A stretch of DNA of 64,000 nucleotides from Acidimicrobiia bacterium (GTDB taxonomy: Bacteria; Actinomycetota; Acidimicrobiia; Spongiisociales; ZC4RG35): assembly GCA_041744375.1 (NCBI GenBank), contig JBGTLA010000109.1:4553-68552 (forward strand). The letters run 5' to 3'. A program made the position numbers and the translations under genes. Under the pieces are notes generated by a model that had not been told where the DNA came from, made no database searches, and saw only the letters and a program-made list of their open reading frames with translations. Positions 44,456-48,155 of this stretch are shown in pieces (positions within the stretch are counted from its first letter, which is position 1; every line of letters begins with the position of its first letter).

Positions 44456-45490
44456 TCAGCGATCGCGCTCCACCATGTAGGCGATGAGGCCCTTCACGAA
44501 ACGCCGGGCGGGTGAGTCTCCTACGTCGACAAAGGCTTCCTCGAAGGCGACGGCGGCAGATCGGGCGATTCCCTGCGCAAACTCATTCGCAAACTCCACG
44601 CTGCCGTGCTCCTGCATCAGCGCGAACACCTCCTCGATCAAGGCATCGGATCGGAAATGTGGGTCCGTGGCCAAATAGCGCTCGAGTTGGTGGCGATGGA
44701 TCGGGTCGGCGGCGGTGAGGAGGTGGAGCAGCATCAATGTCCGCTTTCCCTCGCGCAGGTCGCCCCGCGCCTCTTTGCCGTAGAGGTCAGGGGATCCAGT
44801 GAGGTTGAGGATGTCGTCGCGTATCTGAAAGGCCGCCCCGAGAAAGAACCCGAAGCGCACCATCGGTGTGGGGTCGACCGCTCCCTGGGTTCCGATGAGT
44901 GCCCCCACCCGCAGTGGAAGCACCGTGGTGTACCAGCAGGTCTTCTTCATGATCATGTCGAGGTAGTCGTCGGGGGTGAGATCGGTGCGCCCATCGCGCT
45001 GCCATCCCAGCTCGATCGCCTGGCCTTCGACGGTCTGGAGGGCCATGAAATCGAACTCGGACCAGACCCGGGCGGCGAGGCGCCGGCCCAGCCTTCGCTG
45101 GTTGCCCTTCAGCGCCCCGAGGGCGAAAACGGCGAGGCCGTCGCCGGCGTTGATGGCCAGCGCCCGGCCGAAGCTGCGATGCAGTGTGGGTTTGCCTCGC
45201 CGCAGTTCGCTGCCGTCTTCTACGTCGTCATGGATTAAGAAGGCGGTGTGGAACAGTTCGAGAGCGGCCGCCGAGCCCAACGCGTCATCCACGGTACCTC
45301 CGAAGGCCTCGCAGGTGGCGAGGCACAAGGCCGGCCGGAGCCCCTTGCCTCCCCGAGCGAGATAGTCGGTGGCGGGAGCCACCAGGTAGCGGGAGGTTTC
45401 TTGGTTGGGGATATAGGAGGCGGCGGCCCGCCGGGCCATCTGGCTGTAGCGCCCCAGCTCGTTCGAGAAACCGGTGCGAGTGGTGGTCAT
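44456..45490 (-). CDS. Polyprenyl diphosphate synthase (trans-IPPS; GGPP/FPP-synthase-like)
   Basis: First aspartate-rich motif LIHDDVED, second FQIRDDILN; KGLRPAL near the N-terminus. Confidence 0.85.
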   Translation of the reverse strand: MTTTRTGFSNELGRYSQMARRAAASYIPNQETSRYLVAPATDYLARGGKGLRPALCLATCEAFGGTVDDALGSAAALELFHTAFLIHDDVEDGSELRRGKPTLHRSFGRALAINAGDGLAVFALGALKGNQRRLGRRLAARVWSEFDFMALQTVEGQAIELGWQRDGRTDLTPDDYLDMIMKKTCWYTTVLPLRVGALIGTQGAVDPTPMVRFGFFLGAAFQIRDDILNLTGSPDLYGKEARGDLREGKRTLMLLHLLTAADPIHRHQLERYLATDPHFRSDALIEEVFALMQEHGSVEFANEFAQGIARSAAVAFEEAFVDVGDSPARRFVKGLIAYMVERDR

Positions 45491-46092
45491 CGCCTGGCCT
45501 CCTCTCGATTCAGGACCTCCAGCTGCAGAGCTACCGGTTCGTCAGGAGCCGTGGAGATCAGAACGAGGCCGTGGTAGTGCCCGGACGGCTGGCCCTCGCC
45601 GACATCTACTCGGAGGCGGACCTCCCGGCTGGTCGACGGGCCGATGCGATCGATCTTCGCCGGTGACACCGACACCGTCGCGGCAGGAATGACGACACCA
45701 CCCAGCGACGCCAGGTCGGTCACTTCGACATGGAGGCCACCCGAAGACTGCGTGGTGAGATTGTGCACCCACACAGAAGTCGCCGAGCTGCCCGCCGGTC
45801 GCACCGCAGGAAAGAGGGCCCGCTCGATCACTGGTGCGCCGGGTTTGCGTTCGGTGCGCGACTCGACCAGCTCCGTGGTGGTGGCGAGAAACCGCAGATA
45901 AGCATCCGTCAGCCGGGCGGCCCGGCCGAGCTCCAAGGGCGGGGGTGGTTCATCTGGCATAGAAGGCAGCACGTCGAGGCGGTCGTTCGATGTCGCCCTG
46001 TCGACCATTCCGGCGTAGCGCTCGACCACGGCTGCTGCCGAGAAGAGGCCGAAGAGCTGCACATCCGCAACGAGGTCCCGGCGGTTGGTCAT
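45487..46092 (-). CDS. Hypothetical protein (201 aa), translationally coupled between the FAD oxidoreductase and the polyprenyl synthase
   Basis: ATGA overlap with the upstream gene and 4-nt overlap with the downstream gene. No recognisable motif. The C-terminal half looks beta-rich. Confidence 0.5.
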   Translation of the reverse strand: MTNRRDLVADVQLFGLFSAAAVVERYAGMVDRATSNDRLDVLPSMPDEPPPPLELGRAARLTDAYLRFLATTTELVESRTERKPGAPVIERALFPAVRPAGSSATSVWVHNLTTQSSGGLHVEVTDLASLGGVVIPAATVSVSPAKIDRIGPSTSREVRLRVDVGEGQPSGHYHGLVLISTAPDEPVALQLEVLNREEARR

Positions 46093-48155
46093 GCAACTCC
46101 TTGGGAATCGTCGGCCCCGCCCAATGAGCCTTCGAGGATGGCGCGGGCCGCCAGGACGCCCGATCGTACAGCCGCCTCGAGGCAACCGGCGTCGAGGCCG
46201 CAGGCAGTCCAGTCACCGGCCACGGCGAGGTTGTCGAACCCGGTCCGCCCCGGAGCAAGTCGATATCGGCCCGATCCGGGAAGCGACTGCACATAACGGT
46301 CGGACGGATCGATGTTGGCCCTGTAGTACTGCGCGGCCAGTCGCTCACGCCCGATCCGACCCTGGTCGTCCCACAGCATCTCCCACCGAAACCCAGAGGA
46401 GTCGTGGGCTCGGGGCCACAAGGACCCAACCTCCTCGTCGAGGAAACGCGCCAGCGATGCAGCCACCCAATCCTGGCTCGCCGCCGGGTCGATGTCGGGG
46501 AGGGCTCCGCAAAGATAGGCGACGCTGTGAGGGGCAATGGTGGCCGGCCACGCCTCCCGGTCGAGGAGGTGCGACATCGAAGCCCAGGTGTCGAACGAGT
46601 CTCCGAACCCGCTGAGCGTCACCCCGGCCGGGCCATCCCAACCGATCTCGGATTCGGTGACGTTCATCCACAGCTGCGCCGAGCGCGTTGCCACGGTGGC
46701 CACCTGATCGACCATGTCCTGCCAGATCCGGTTGGCGGCGACGACCTCTGCCGCCACATGGGGGACCATTCCCAACGAGACCGCCAGGACGACCAGGTCG
46801 AAGTCCTCGCCCACGGCCAGCCGTTCGGTGCCGGTCCCGGTAGCCGAATCCCAATGTGATTCGAGCTGGTCTCCCGGGTCCGCAGCGAGCTGTTCCACCT
46901 GGGGGCGAGAGGGCCAGCAGGGGAGGCCGCCTACTCGTATGAGCGGGTCGTAGCCGGATCGGCCCGGCGCCAGCTCGGCCTGACGCGTCAGTTCGATCGA
47001 GGCGATCGACGGTCCGGCGCCCACGCCGACGCGGTCGAGACGGCGGAAGAAACAGAAGTCGACACCCCGGCGGGTGAGAGCCTCGTACAGCGGGGCGAAC
47101 ACGACCTCACCCATCCCCGCTTGCATCCGCCAGAAAATCGACCCCTTGAAGTCGAAGAGCATCCGGCTGGCGAGCTGGAGGCCAAGACCCGCCGCAAAGC
47201 GGGGCCGGGTCCGGTCTCCGCCCTCATAGGCGAAGGTCAGGTCGTACATACCTCGCACGATGGGAGAATCGAGAGTCTCCGGAGCCGCGCCGTGCTGGGC
47301 GAGCCATCCCCGGTAGTCCAAGTGGTCGATTCGCTCATAACCGGAGCCCGACCAGAGCCCATCGAACGCCATCCCCACCAAATTCGTCGCCACCAGGTCG
47401 ACCAGCTGCCACGTCCGACGGGCCGCGGGGTCAGCCATCACCACGGTGGCGATGCCCTGGCGCCAGGCGCGGAGGACGTCGGCGAACACCTCGGCGGTGG
47501 AACCTGCGACGGTCGCGTCGGCAGCCAACCGGGCGGTGCGCTCGGTGGCCGCCAACAAAGCGGCGAGGGCGGTGAGACCACCACCCCGGATGAGCGTCGC
47601 CAGGTCGGTGACCTCAGGTCTCGGCACCGGCGAAGCGCTGAGGTGCACCCTTTGGGACCGGGAAGGCGCCTCCAGTGACCGATGAAAATCGACCAGGAGC
47701 CGCAGACCTCTCACGCCGACATCGAGCGGACGAAGCGTTCGGTTCTCGGCTCCCGGCTCGCCCGGTAGGGCGGCGTTGCTCGAGAACCGTGTGACGAAGT
47801 GCGACCACTCACCTCCGGGAGTCTCGGCCAGCCCGACGTCACCGGTGGGCGCCACCGCCTCCTGCCAGGTGCGGATTGGGCAGGCCGGGTCGGTGACGTT
47901 GCGGTTCAGCTCGTCGTACGCCTCCCGCAGCACCCGGAACGTGGCGTCGTAGTAGCCGAGCAGCACGTGCAGCCCGTGCTCTTCGATGCGTCCGTGTCGT
48001 CCCCGGCTGCTGGCCCCCTTGCCGCCCAGCCGCCAGCCGCGTTGGTACACGGTTATGGATCCGACTCGCTCCCTCCACTCGCCCGAGCTCAACTCCCAGG
48101 CGGTCACCAGCCCCGCCATGCCTCCCCCCAAGATGACGACGCGCGGCCGGGACAC
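46089..48155 (-). CDS. Large FAD/NAD(P)-binding oxidoreductase, amine-oxidase / phytoene-desaturase superfamily (688 aa)
   Basis: N-terminal RVVILGGGMAGL...LGGKG...EHGLHV dinucleotide-binding pattern and C-terminal NLAVAGDWTACGLDAGCLEAAVRSG motif. GTG start placed 1 nt after the STAND gene's stop. The track ORF extends to 48299. Confidence 0.7.
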   Translation of the reverse strand: MSRPRVVILGGGMAGLVTAWELSSGEWRERVGSITVYQRGWRLGGKGASSRGRHGRIEEHGLHVLLGYYDATFRVLREAYDELNRNVTDPACPIRTWQEAVAPTGDVGLAETPGGEWSHFVTRFSSNAALPGEPGAENRTLRPLDVGVRGLRLLVDFHRSLEAPSRSQRVHLSASPVPRPEVTDLATLIRGGGLTALAALLAATERTARLAADATVAGSTAEVFADVLRAWRQGIATVVMADPAARRTWQLVDLVATNLVGMAFDGLWSGSGYERIDHLDYRGWLAQHGAAPETLDSPIVRGMYDLTFAYEGGDRTRPRFAAGLGLQLASRMLFDFKGSIFWRMQAGMGEVVFAPLYEALTRRGVDFCFFRRLDRVGVGAGPSIASIELTRQAELAPGRSGYDPLIRVGGLPCWPSRPQVEQLAADPGDQLESHWDSATGTGTERLAVGEDFDLVVLAVSLGMVPHVAAEVVAANRIWQDMVDQVATVATRSAQLWMNVTESEIGWDGPAGVTLSGFGDSFDTWASMSHLLDREAWPATIAPHSVAYLCGALPDIDPAASQDWVAASLARFLDEEVGSLWPRAHDSSGFRWEMLWDDQGRIGRERLAAQYYRANIDPSDRYVQSLPGSGRYRLAPGRTGFDNLAVAGDWTACGLDAGCLEAAVRSGVLAARAILEGSLGGADDSQGVA

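Follow-up and report, generated by a model that had tools for sequence, protein, structure and literature searches.

Among the enzymes that act on isoprenoids with flavin adenine dinucleotide (FAD), phytoene desaturase (PDS/CrtP; rice enzyme, PDB entry 5MOG) combines an FAD-binding fold with a two-domain architecture, and HpnE is often encoded near a prenyl synthase in hopanoid clusters. Some prenyl synthases are heteromeric, such as HepS/HepT, HexA/HexB and the plant GPPS with its small subunits, and have a small gene coupled to, and sometimes fused with, the catalytic gene; their known small subunits consist of helices only and have a fold related to that of the synthase. Class III nucleotide cyclases joined to an AAA_16 ATPase and helical repeats are represented by the mycobacterial Rv0386-type proteins and by the kinase/cyclase fusions of NCBIfam model TIGR03903, and Rv0386 has a glutamine at the position that specifies the purine. 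Here, we describe a locus that resembles each of these systems in part, a five-gene cassette with an FAD-type flavoprotein in its middle, found in a 64,000-nucleotide stretch of contig JBGTLA010000109.1 (positions 4,553 to 68,552, forward strand; assembly GCA_041744375.1) from an Acidimicrobiia bacterium. That whole stretch is referred to as the window, and coordinates are those of the window unless another locus is named. The five genes are co-directional:

51417..52991, minus strand: gene 1, hyp524, a 524-residue protein of a family without assignment
48157..51411, minus strand: gene 2, a cyclase/AAA_16/TPR ATPase of 1084 residues, of the STAND type (signal transduction ATPases with numerous domains)
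46089..48155, minus strand: gene 3, the flavoprotein, 688 residues, FAD-type, amine-oxidase superfamily, PDS-like fold
45487..46092, minus strand: gene 4, p201, 201 residues, N-terminal helices and a C-terminal immunoglobulin (Ig)-like beta-sandwich
44456..45490, minus strand: gene 5, a trans-polyprenyl diphosphate synthase of 344 residues (PF00348)

The ATG of the cyclase ATPase lies 5 nt past the hyp524 stop, its TGA is 1 nt ahead of the GTG of the flavoprotein, and 4-nt ATGA overlaps were found at both the flavoprotein/p201 and the p201/synthase junctions; the cassette is a translationally coupled unit of five genes, with the flavoprotein and p201 in its middle. An earlier note on this DNA had read from the sequence the 688- and 201-residue open reading frames (ORFs), the 4-nt overlaps and a downstream polyprenyl synthase, all of which were confirmed (synthase, PF00348, E = 8e-59). 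The unit it composed of flavoprotein, partner and synthase has the gene order right but is incomplete, the full set being five genes and including the cyclase/AAA_16/TPR ATPase.

The explanation that we favor, with a probability of about 0.4, is that the cassette uses FAD to oxidize or desaturate an isoprenoid that derives from its own synthase, and couples this reaction to cyclic-nucleotide (cNMP) signaling. The synthase, with its motifs intact, would yield an all-trans prenyl diphosphate, probably of short chain length (C15–C20). p201 would be a dedicated accessory subunit or docking module of the synthase, and the paralogous p201-like module of hyp524 would tether the central domain of that protein to the same assembly. 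The flavoprotein, with its PDS-type FAD fold, would oxidize or desaturate a hydrophobic isoprenoid-derived intermediate coming from the assembly, while the STAND-type cyclase would tie the pathway to cNMP signaling, either by sensing the product or the complex through its TPR region or by switching the pathway on. The cassette is an undescribed operon context for a known kind of enzyme, and its chemistry is what we infer throughout, including the substrate, the type of redox reaction, a physical complex and the direction of signaling. If the cassette does make or modify an isoprenoid, it would represent a new branch of PDS/HpnE-type flavoenzyme chemistry, one whose starting point is not the product of a head-to-head C30/C40 synthase. 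In the literature, no characterized member and no paper on the five-gene combination was found.

Conservation and mobility of the cassette

A scan of one genome per species returned at least 440 stretches with a relative of the flavoprotein, and detailed counts were made from 83 loci (contigs or assemblies). A synthase was detected in 81 of these (tblastn) and p201, detected with a hidden Markov model (HMM), also in 81; the cyclase ATPase was found in 77 (tblastn) and hyp524 in 57 (phmmer). The p201 counts use the first HMM pass only, as iterations 1–3 were contaminated by over-long ORFs in high-GC DNA. Missing cassette genes mostly coincide with contig ends, and in the two loci that lack p201 and synthase the contig stops directly past the flavoprotein. 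Three homologue neighborhoods showed the same order of a protein of ~525 residues of unknown family, a ~1085-residue Guanylate_cyc+AAA_16 protein, the flavoprotein, a protein of ~200–230 residues and a polyprenyl synthase, and 4-nt overlaps were also found in relatives. Such an arrangement is far beyond chance. Absence of the synthase from the neighborhoods of relatives would have spoken against a role in prenyl chemistry as first proposed; its linkage is kept in about 80 loci.

The hosts comprise Acidimicrobiia metagenome-assembled genomes (MAGs), Intrasporangiaceae (Pedococcus, Intrasporangium, Ornithinibacter, Ornithinimicrobium), Blastococcus, Propionibacteriaceae, Dermatophilaceae, Friedmanniella, Streptosporangiaceae and Mycobacterium/Mycolicibacterium, with Pedococcus cremeus, Ornithinimicrobium pekingense, Blastococcus, Mycolicibacterium litorale and Mycobacterium sp. 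JS623 as culturable carriers. A split form of the mycobacterial type has p201 and the synthase on the opposite strand, divergent from hyp524, cyclase and flavoprotein and still in one cluster. The mycobacterial carriers JS623, JS60 and M. vinylchloridicum are presumably alkene or vinyl-chloride degraders, judging from their strain names.

No sixth conserved gene was found in the 83 loci, the commonest neighbor, a Crp-type regulator (cNMP_binding + HTH_Crp_2), being present in 11 of them. None of the genes that flank the cassette in the window lie beside it in relatives, even where the cassette proteins are 78% identical, and as flanks are never common to relatives, the five genes travel as a unit. 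Copies from Actinomycetes (64–72% identity) are nearer to that of the window than many copies from Acidimicrobiia (46–59%), and one copy of the cassette is carried by the mobilizable 394-kb plasmid pMYCSM01 of Mycobacterium sp. JS623 (L084, NC_019957.1, 357–368 kb), beside a recombinase. With unshared flanks, closer Actinomycetes copies and a plasmid copy, the cassette thus behaves as a mobile, self-contained module.

Two further observations concern single carriers. On pMYCSM01, the flavoprotein gene directly adjoins a gene for a saccharopine-dehydrogenase-like NAD(P)-binding protein. Locus L007 (CAWHEU010000022.1), from a MAG labelled 'uncultured Acidobacteriota bacterium', encodes a flavoprotein 77% identical to that of the window and four other cassette proteins with 48–76% identity, which indicates either a binning or taxonomy error or a recent transfer. 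A scan for promoters and terminators was uninformative.

The prenyl synthase, p201 and hyp524

The synthase matched PF00348 with 199.3 bits (cutoff 27) and contains the two aspartate-rich motifs of the family:

45215..45229, minus strand: first Asp-rich motif DDVED, residues 88–92, preceded by TAFLIH (Ala at −5, Phe at −4)
44804..44818, minus strand: second Asp-rich motif DDILN, residues 225–229

Both motifs are intact and conserved in orthologues, and the pattern (T/N)AFL(V/I)H-DDxxD-xSxxRRG is kept across synthase orthologues spanning 78 loci. The pattern resembles that of geranylgeranyl diphosphate (GGPP) synthases whose first motif contains no insertion. The best NCBIfam models were of the short-chain type, namely the encapsulin-cargo prenyltransferase (191.8 bits, cutoff 450), IdsA (183.7, cutoff 468) and GGPP synthase (160.8, cutoff 500), and neither a chain-length model (farnesyl diphosphate (FPP), GGPP, long-chain) nor the cargo model NF041169 scored above cutoff. 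The sequence suggests that the product chain is probably short. A role as family 2 encapsulin cargo was considered and rejected, with the NF041169 score under half of the cutoff and no shell gene recurring in the 83 loci.

The small protein p201 and hyp524 contain the following domains:

45514..45828, minus strand: beta-sandwich of p201, residues 89–193, NEW3/GH123_N-like Ig type
52092..52574, minus strand: central conserved domain of hyp524, residues ~140–300, with motifs DPxNWP, VDRG and KALK
51420..51986, minus strand: C-terminal p201-like module of hyp524, residues ~336–524, helical segment and beta-sandwich

An AlphaFold2 (AF2) model of p201 had a predicted local distance difference test (pLDDT) score of 60 overall, with low-confidence helices to about residue 80 and a sandwich at residues 89–193 of pLDDT 70–83, so that its first description as beta-rich fits the C-terminal sandwich but not the helical N-terminal part. 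Foldseek related the sandwich to GH123 glycosidases (N-terminal domain), to PapD-like chaperones and to MSP/VAP domains; no match to p201 was found in Pfam or NCBIfam. When its profile was compared to 1.84 billion representative proteins, 1026 clusters were returned, mostly full-length relatives of 180–250 residues, and the other matches include giant repeat proteins that share the sandwich only and contain the Pfam domains NPCBM_assoc/NEW3, Glyco_hydro_123_N_2 and DUF4625. For p201, hyp524 and the subfamily of the flavoprotein no characterized homologue was found, and the first two are also without a Pfam family.

p201 is always encoded directly upstream of the synthase, also in the split cassettes, and is fused to it in L047 (a single ORF of 548 residues) and in P0347 (HEX9314786.1), with P0394 as a partial case. 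The L047 and P0347 proteins are 70% identical across p201, linker and synthase, and the fusion is therefore real and not an assembly error. Rv0990c and grcC2 of M. tuberculosis might form a comparable p201–synthase pair, but the papers found on them give no function. Taken as the coupled partner of the flavoprotein in the earlier note, p201 is instead tied to the synthase, as the split cassettes and the fusions in two MAGs demonstrate. By analogy with the heteromeric synthases, coupling and fusion suggest that p201 would be an obligatory or regulatory synthase partner, although it differs from their small subunits in consisting of a helical segment and an Ig-like beta-sandwich; if the cassette does make or modify an isoprenoid, trans-prenyl synthases would have in p201 an accessory subunit of a new type. 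Of the five proteins, p201 evolves fastest (27–54% identity where the flavoprotein has 51–78%), a divergence that fits an adaptor better than an enzyme.

In a small clade, an ORF of ~185–230 residues (MDAAPDFIGVVIGFRQFRV...) was found between p201 and the synthase (L030:12891–13586, L070:12890–13447), and the same p201–synthase gap is present in L032, the third locus of this clade.

p201 was found to be homologous to residues 330–524 of hyp524 (hhalign probability 96.5%, E = 7e-10, 179 columns), including both the helical segment and the sandwich, whereas controls with hyp524 residues 1–130 and 130–330 gave a probability of 0.1%. This profile comparison identifies p201 and the C-terminal module of hyp524 as paralogues. 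The central domain of hyp524, with invariant residues P177, W180, M191, E216, V218, L228, D257, G259 and K276 and at least 90% conservation of C143, F162, F280, C293 and W296, alone is retained in the most distant, mycobacterial-type versions; the N-terminal 135 residues are missing in one clade, and the C-terminal module in these most distant versions. Profile searches of Pfam, NCBIfam and the PDB returned no relative of hyp524 even at E ≤ 10, and tblastn against plasmids gave no match, although the HMM detects the JS623 copy.

Two assignments of hyp524 were tried and rejected. Its comparison to profiles of acetoacetate-decarboxylase (ADC)-like proteins gave hhalign probabilities of 0.1–0.2%, and an SRPBCC-like nature was an impression from the DPxNWP motif only, with no profile match at E ≤ 10. 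In distant cassettes, small ORFs directly upstream of the cyclase gene (L058:1710–2114, L059:1981–2691, L062:3119–3403, L069:6571–6834) weakly match the helical segment of p201 and hyp524 (E 1e-4 to 2e-5), which hints that this segment may be a separable module associated with the cyclase ATPase.

The flavoprotein and its relatives

The following segments of the flavoprotein were delimited:

48108..48128, minus strand: dinucleotide-binding motif GGGMAGL, residues 10–16, aligned to AGAGLAGL of PDS
47361..47783, minus strand: main family-specific expansion, residues ~125–265, delimited from the AF2 model, pLDDT and invariant columns
46158..46220, minus strand: C-terminal FAD-binding motif AGDWTACGLDAGCLEAAVRSG, residues 646–666, aligned to PDS residues 433–473

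Membership of the amine-oxidase superfamily, as first proposed, was borne out by matches above the Pfam cutoffs to PF01593 (38.4 bits, cutoff 19.8) and PF13450 (38 bits, cutoff 21.9), together with the N-terminal GxGxxG and the C-terminal FAD motif; the reported motifs GGGMAGL, GGKG (44–47), EHGLHV (59–64) and AGDWTACGLDAGCLEAAVRSG are all present. Pfam covers just the two ends of the protein, NAD_binding_8 at residues 8–78 and Amino_oxidase at 623–674. The start codon is GTG at 48155, and a database copy of the identical protein (P0001, 676 residues) begins at Met13, an internal ATG (window 48119–48155). That start cuts off half of the GxGxxG motif, and homologues align from residues 1–5, which supports the GTG at 48155 as the likely true start.

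Compared to PDS and CrtI the protein is unusually long, as had been noted, but not within its own family, which has thousands of homologues with a normal length of ~680 residues; the best 120 homologues are all of 663–720 residues. The roughly 350-residue insertion supposed to lie between the terminal motifs did not hold up, since all enzymes of this fold have their entire substrate domain between these two motifs, so that the distance from one to the other is not an insertion. With three anchors to 5MOG (query 5–71 to PDS 19–80, 351–397 to 233–279, 637–678 to 433–473) and the secondary structure of the AF2 model (pLDDT 80.5, predicted template modeling score 0.86), the excess over PDS amounted to ~127 residues in the first half and ~86 in the second, ~210 in total and in at least two places. 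The model thus contains a helical expansion in the first half, with long helices at ~143–264 and a variable, disordered low-confidence loop at 163–189, and no single insert of 350 residues. This expansion holds the conserved motifs NxxLPGEPGAE and RRTWQLVDL, whose invariant residues indicate that it is functional and not a spacer, and it is here that HMM alignments of proteobacterial homologues break.

The only significant PDB match of the family profile at the sequence level was rice phytoene desaturase, 5MOG (E = 0.0027), and the alignment showed the common signature GGK...E-x-GLH-x-x-x-G-x-Y. The four chains of 5MOG also ranked first when the AF2 model was compared to the PDB with Foldseek (E 4e-15 to 2e-14; target-normalized TM-score 0.70–0.74; 14–15% identity). 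The flavoprotein thus shares with PDS/CrtP the FAD-binding fold, the two-domain architecture, the N-terminal GxGxxG with the above signature and the C-terminal AGD motif, but is only 15% identical, ~210 residues longer and encoded alongside a cyclase ATPase and two proteins of unknown family. Homologues carry the JGI label 'NAD-binding domain and iron-sulfur cluster', which we take to be the name of COG3349. In one genome-mining paper COG3349 was applied to a cyanobacterial phytoene desaturase (PMC4558948).

The best NCBIfam matches of the flavoprotein were all far under their cutoffs: HpnE (TIGR03467; 52.8 bits, cutoff 283, N- and C-terminal stretches aligned), PDS (TIGR02731; 23.2 bits, cutoff 569.4, residues 5–78 only) and ZDS (21.5 bits). 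The protoporphyrinogen oxidase models (TIGR00562 and others) gave 15–18 bits (cutoffs 98–560), and no CrtI or MCRA/oleate-hydratase model of Pfam or NCBIfam matched at E ≤ 0.01. An ordinary carotenoid or hopanoid enzyme, that is, an orthologue of PDS/CrtP, ZDS, CrtU or HpnE beside the GGPP or FPP synthase of its pathway, would account for this ranking, and in the hopanoid clusters of Streptomyces an HpnE-type gene does lie beside a polyprenyl synthase. We nevertheless consider such a classical role very improbable: the scores are far below curated cutoffs, the protein is ~250 residues longer than HpnE and has ~210 extra residues and 15% identity relative to PDS, hpnC, hpnD and shc are not conserved neighbors, and the 83 loci have no recurring gene for a phytoene or squalene synthase, a cyclase or any other step of such a pathway. 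For phytoene synthase, this negative means that no further family occurs in more than 11 of the 83 loci, CrtB not having been searched with a specific model. The flavoprotein thus forms a deep branch without a name of its own, closest to the PDS/ZDS/HpnE lineage, and is not orthologous to any characterized enzyme.

Homologues also occur outside the Actinomycetota, in Proteobacteria, Bacteroidota and metagenomes. Full-length plasmid homologues identified with tblastn scored 330–500 bits against the family HMM over positions 2–675 (34–40% identity, 729–760 residues). In Rufibacter, a 753-residue flavoprotein is accompanied by a divergent 1706-residue Pkinase-AAA_16-GAF-cyclase protein, with a PDDEXK nuclease and a patatin-like phospholipase nearby. 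Azospirillum encodes a 760-residue flavoprotein next to a divergent 1919-residue Pkinase-AAA_16-GAF-PAS-histidine-kinase protein; here the flavoprotein is followed by a 4-nt-overlapping gene of the ADC family, and a second flavoprotein paralogue is nearby. In Catenovulum the ADC-family gene precedes the flavoprotein, and in Qingshengfaniella the two form a 968-residue flavoprotein-ADC fusion followed by a cyclase-AAA_16-TPR protein and a Crp/Fnr regulator. These likewise uncharacterized ADC-paired sister subfamilies resemble that of the window in full-length homology, similar length and frequent AAA_16 neighbors, but have an ADC-like Schiff-base partner in place of synthase, p201 and hyp524, and their expansion (~105–215) is unalignable.

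A metagenome scan seeded with the Rufibacter, Azospirillum, Catenovulum and Qingshengfaniella proteins, from which 80 loci were kept, supplies the main evidence that weighs against an action of the flavoprotein on a prenyl product. An ADC-like gene adjoins the flavoprotein in 53 of these 80 loci, 23 have both in a single ORF, in either order, and a synthase was found in one only (L164). Full-length homologues are thus almost never accompanied by a synthase, from which it follows that the chemistry of the family needs no prenyl synthase; the pairing with ADC-like enzymes points to carbonyl chemistry, which may involve a carbonyl intermediate. In addition, nicotine oxidoreductase, L-amino-acid oxidases and protoporphyrinogen oxidase follow closely behind 5MOG in the fold ranking (the CrtI-like 4REP being 43rd), and the likeness to PDS amounts to 15% identity that at the sequence level is limited to the FAD-binding segments. 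To our knowledge, all characterized PDS, ZDS, HpnE and CrtU enzymes act on C30–C40 products of head-to-head synthases, and no such synthase was found in the cassette, given that no further family recurs in more than 11 of the 83 loci.

The same observations make it possible, if doubtful, that the flavoprotein oxidizes a non-isoprenoid substrate (an amine, amino acid, alcohol or fatty-acid derivative) and thereby makes or consumes a carbonyl compound, as the sister subfamilies probably do with their ADC-like Schiff-base partner; in Actinomycetota the synthase pair would then be merely co-regulated with it through the shared STAND cyclase. The ADC-like proteins keep a GRExWGxxK motif, whose lysine we take to be the Schiff-base residue of ADC enzymes, and in split cassettes p201 and the synthase part from the flavoprotein while the flavoprotein stays with the cyclase. 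Against such an oxidase speak the sequence signature and the only significant profile matches, all of PDS/ZDS/HpnE type, and the presence of the synthase in the same cluster in 81 of the 83 actinobacterial loci, even when split; the actinobacterial cassette moreover contains no ADC-like protein, and no relatedness of ADC-like proteins to hyp524 or p201 was detectable.

Oxidation or desaturation of an isoprenoid is favored by L164 (L164:5943–12017), which lies outside the actinobacterial type and also has the order flavoprotein, small helical protein and synthase: it encodes an ADC-like gene (minus strand), an NAD-binding protein, the flavoprotein, a small helical ORF of 261 residues and a polyprenyl synthase. 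The 261-residue ORF shows weak similarity (E 7e-6) to the helical segment within the hyp524 C-terminal module, and this hybrid locus may link both kinds of neighborhood. Of the first proposal of a desaturase or oxidase acting on a prenyl product, what stands is that the nearest characterized enzymes, PDS, ZDS and HpnE, act on isoprenoids and that the synthase linkage is kept; what does not carry over is the family elsewhere, where the synthase is lacking. An action on a prenyl product is plausible in the actinobacterial lineage.

Some minor observations were made on the metagenome loci. No p201 or hyp524 was found in the 80 loci by tblastn, and the HMM detects hyp524-type ORFs in L161, a truncated cassette of actinobacterial type. 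In L164 the NAD-binding gene abuts the flavoprotein, as does the NAD(P)-binding gene on pMYCSM01. ADC-flavoprotein fusions are present at L087:8326–11232 and in L090, L091, L093–L095, L098, L101, L102, L114, L115, L141, L143, L147–L149, L152, L153, L155, L158, L162, L163, L165 and L166, and with the ADC part either N- or C-terminal they make up an uncharacterized two-domain enzyme family that is widespread in metagenomes.

The cyclase ATPase and neighboring genes

The catalytic domain of the cyclase was located as follows:

50671..51204, minus strand: cyclase catalytic domain, residues ~70–247, with D76, D120, N199, R203 and Gln116

The protein matched Guanylate_cyc (PF00211; 56.3 bits, cutoff 21.9) and AAA_16 (69 bits, cutoff 32.6); TPR_12 scored 21.9 bits, under its cutoff of 30.1, and the repeat assignment is weak. 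TIGR03903 aligned over model positions 283–1267 with 389 bits, under the cutoff of 705. Among cyclase orthologues, the metal-binding residues D76 and D120 were kept in 74 of 74, the transition-state residues N199 and R203 in 69 of 74 and 73 of 73, respectively, and the purine-specifying position (Gln116 in the window) was Q in 43, K in 10 and H in 6. The cyclase is thus predicted to be probably active, with an uncertain nucleotide preference. It shares with the Rv0386-type and TIGR03903 proteins the class III cyclase, AAA_16 and helical repeats, and has Gln at the purine position; it differs in having no detected C-terminal LuxR helix-turn-helix and no kinase domain, and in its score under the cutoff.

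A further explanation makes the ATPase the core of a signaling device, in which the flavoprotein makes or destroys a small-molecule ligand that gates cNMP or kinase output; the cassette would then be a sensing or second-messenger pathway based on a lipid and would not serve bulk lipid biosynthesis. AAA_16 ATPases with differing outputs adjoin flavoprotein homologues in several phyla (cyclase in the window and Qingshengfaniella, Ser/Thr kinase with GAF and cyclase in Rufibacter, kinase with GAF, PAS and histidine kinase in Azospirillum), AAA_16 genes are nearby in at least 25 of the 80 metagenome loci, and Crp-type regulators adjoin in 11 actinobacterial loci and in Qingshengfaniella. On the other hand, a Catenovulum-like group (L089–L101, L103) has ADC and flavoprotein without AAA_16, mostly with 8 kb visible on each side, and the ATPase is therefore not obligatory for the flavoprotein family; nor is there a known ligand. 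We hold this to be rather unlikely as an explanation of its own, and it overlaps with, rather than excludes, an isoprenoid oxidation coupled to cNMP signaling.

That the flavoprotein family is repeatedly found with STAND cyclases or kinases and with Crp regulators suggests that lipid or redox chemistry is connected to cyclic-nucleotide signaling. Crp/Fnr-type regulators directly beside the cassette or its relative are encoded at L047:4275–4940 and in 10 other Acidimicrobiaceae-type loci, and at L087:14360–15040; such a regulator may be the receptor for the cyclase product. In a broader and speculative version, to which we give little weight, a family of PDS-like flavoenzymes of ~700 residues that spans several phyla would be the chemical front end of STAND ATPases, and in Actinomycetota a dedicated synthase, p201 as its new Ig-like accessory subunit and hyp524 as a partner of new fold would have been recruited, such that an isoprenoid-derived small molecule made or processed by them gates the cNMP output. 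If true, this would be a lipid-to-cNMP signaling pathway of a kind undescribed in bacteria.

The cyclase domain also gave weak matches to PycC HMMs (E 5e-13), and with a nucleotide cyclase and accessory proteins the cassette bears some likeness to Pycsar. Anti-phage defense by a cyclase plus effectors (Pycsar-like or STAND/Avs-like), with the enzymes as effectors, would also be in keeping with the non-canonical and variable purine-specifying residue, the patchy distribution, unrelated flanks and plasmid-borne copy, and the nuclease and phospholipase near the Rufibacter copy. It is nonetheless improbable, as PycC matches of this kind are what any class III cyclase gives, the other four cassette proteins have no PADLOC match, and the cassette encodes no transmembrane, TIR or nuclease effector; furthermore, the adjacent Crp-type regulators indicate transcriptional signaling, and no relative was found in viral contigs. 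Defense and a classical carotenoid or hopanoid role are both regarded as unlikely.

Downstream of the synthase, the window encodes an MFS (major facilitator superfamily) transporter (43016–44257) and, beyond it (39502–42966), four further proteins: one whose sequence looks like a cytochrome P450, a probable alpha/beta hydrolase, a short-chain dehydrogenase and a member of the carboxymuconolactone-decarboxylase family, the last being the only one of the four that was checked with Pfam. None of the genes at 39502–44257 is conserved beside the cassette in relatives. Elsewhere in the window, an aromatic-ring hydroxylase (32167–34221, minus strand; FAD_binding_3 + Rng_hyd_C) and an aldo/keto reductase (60022–61440, plus strand) each have ~160 residues ahead of the first domain in the longest ORF, and these ORF starts are probably over-extended, as is typical for high-GC DNA.

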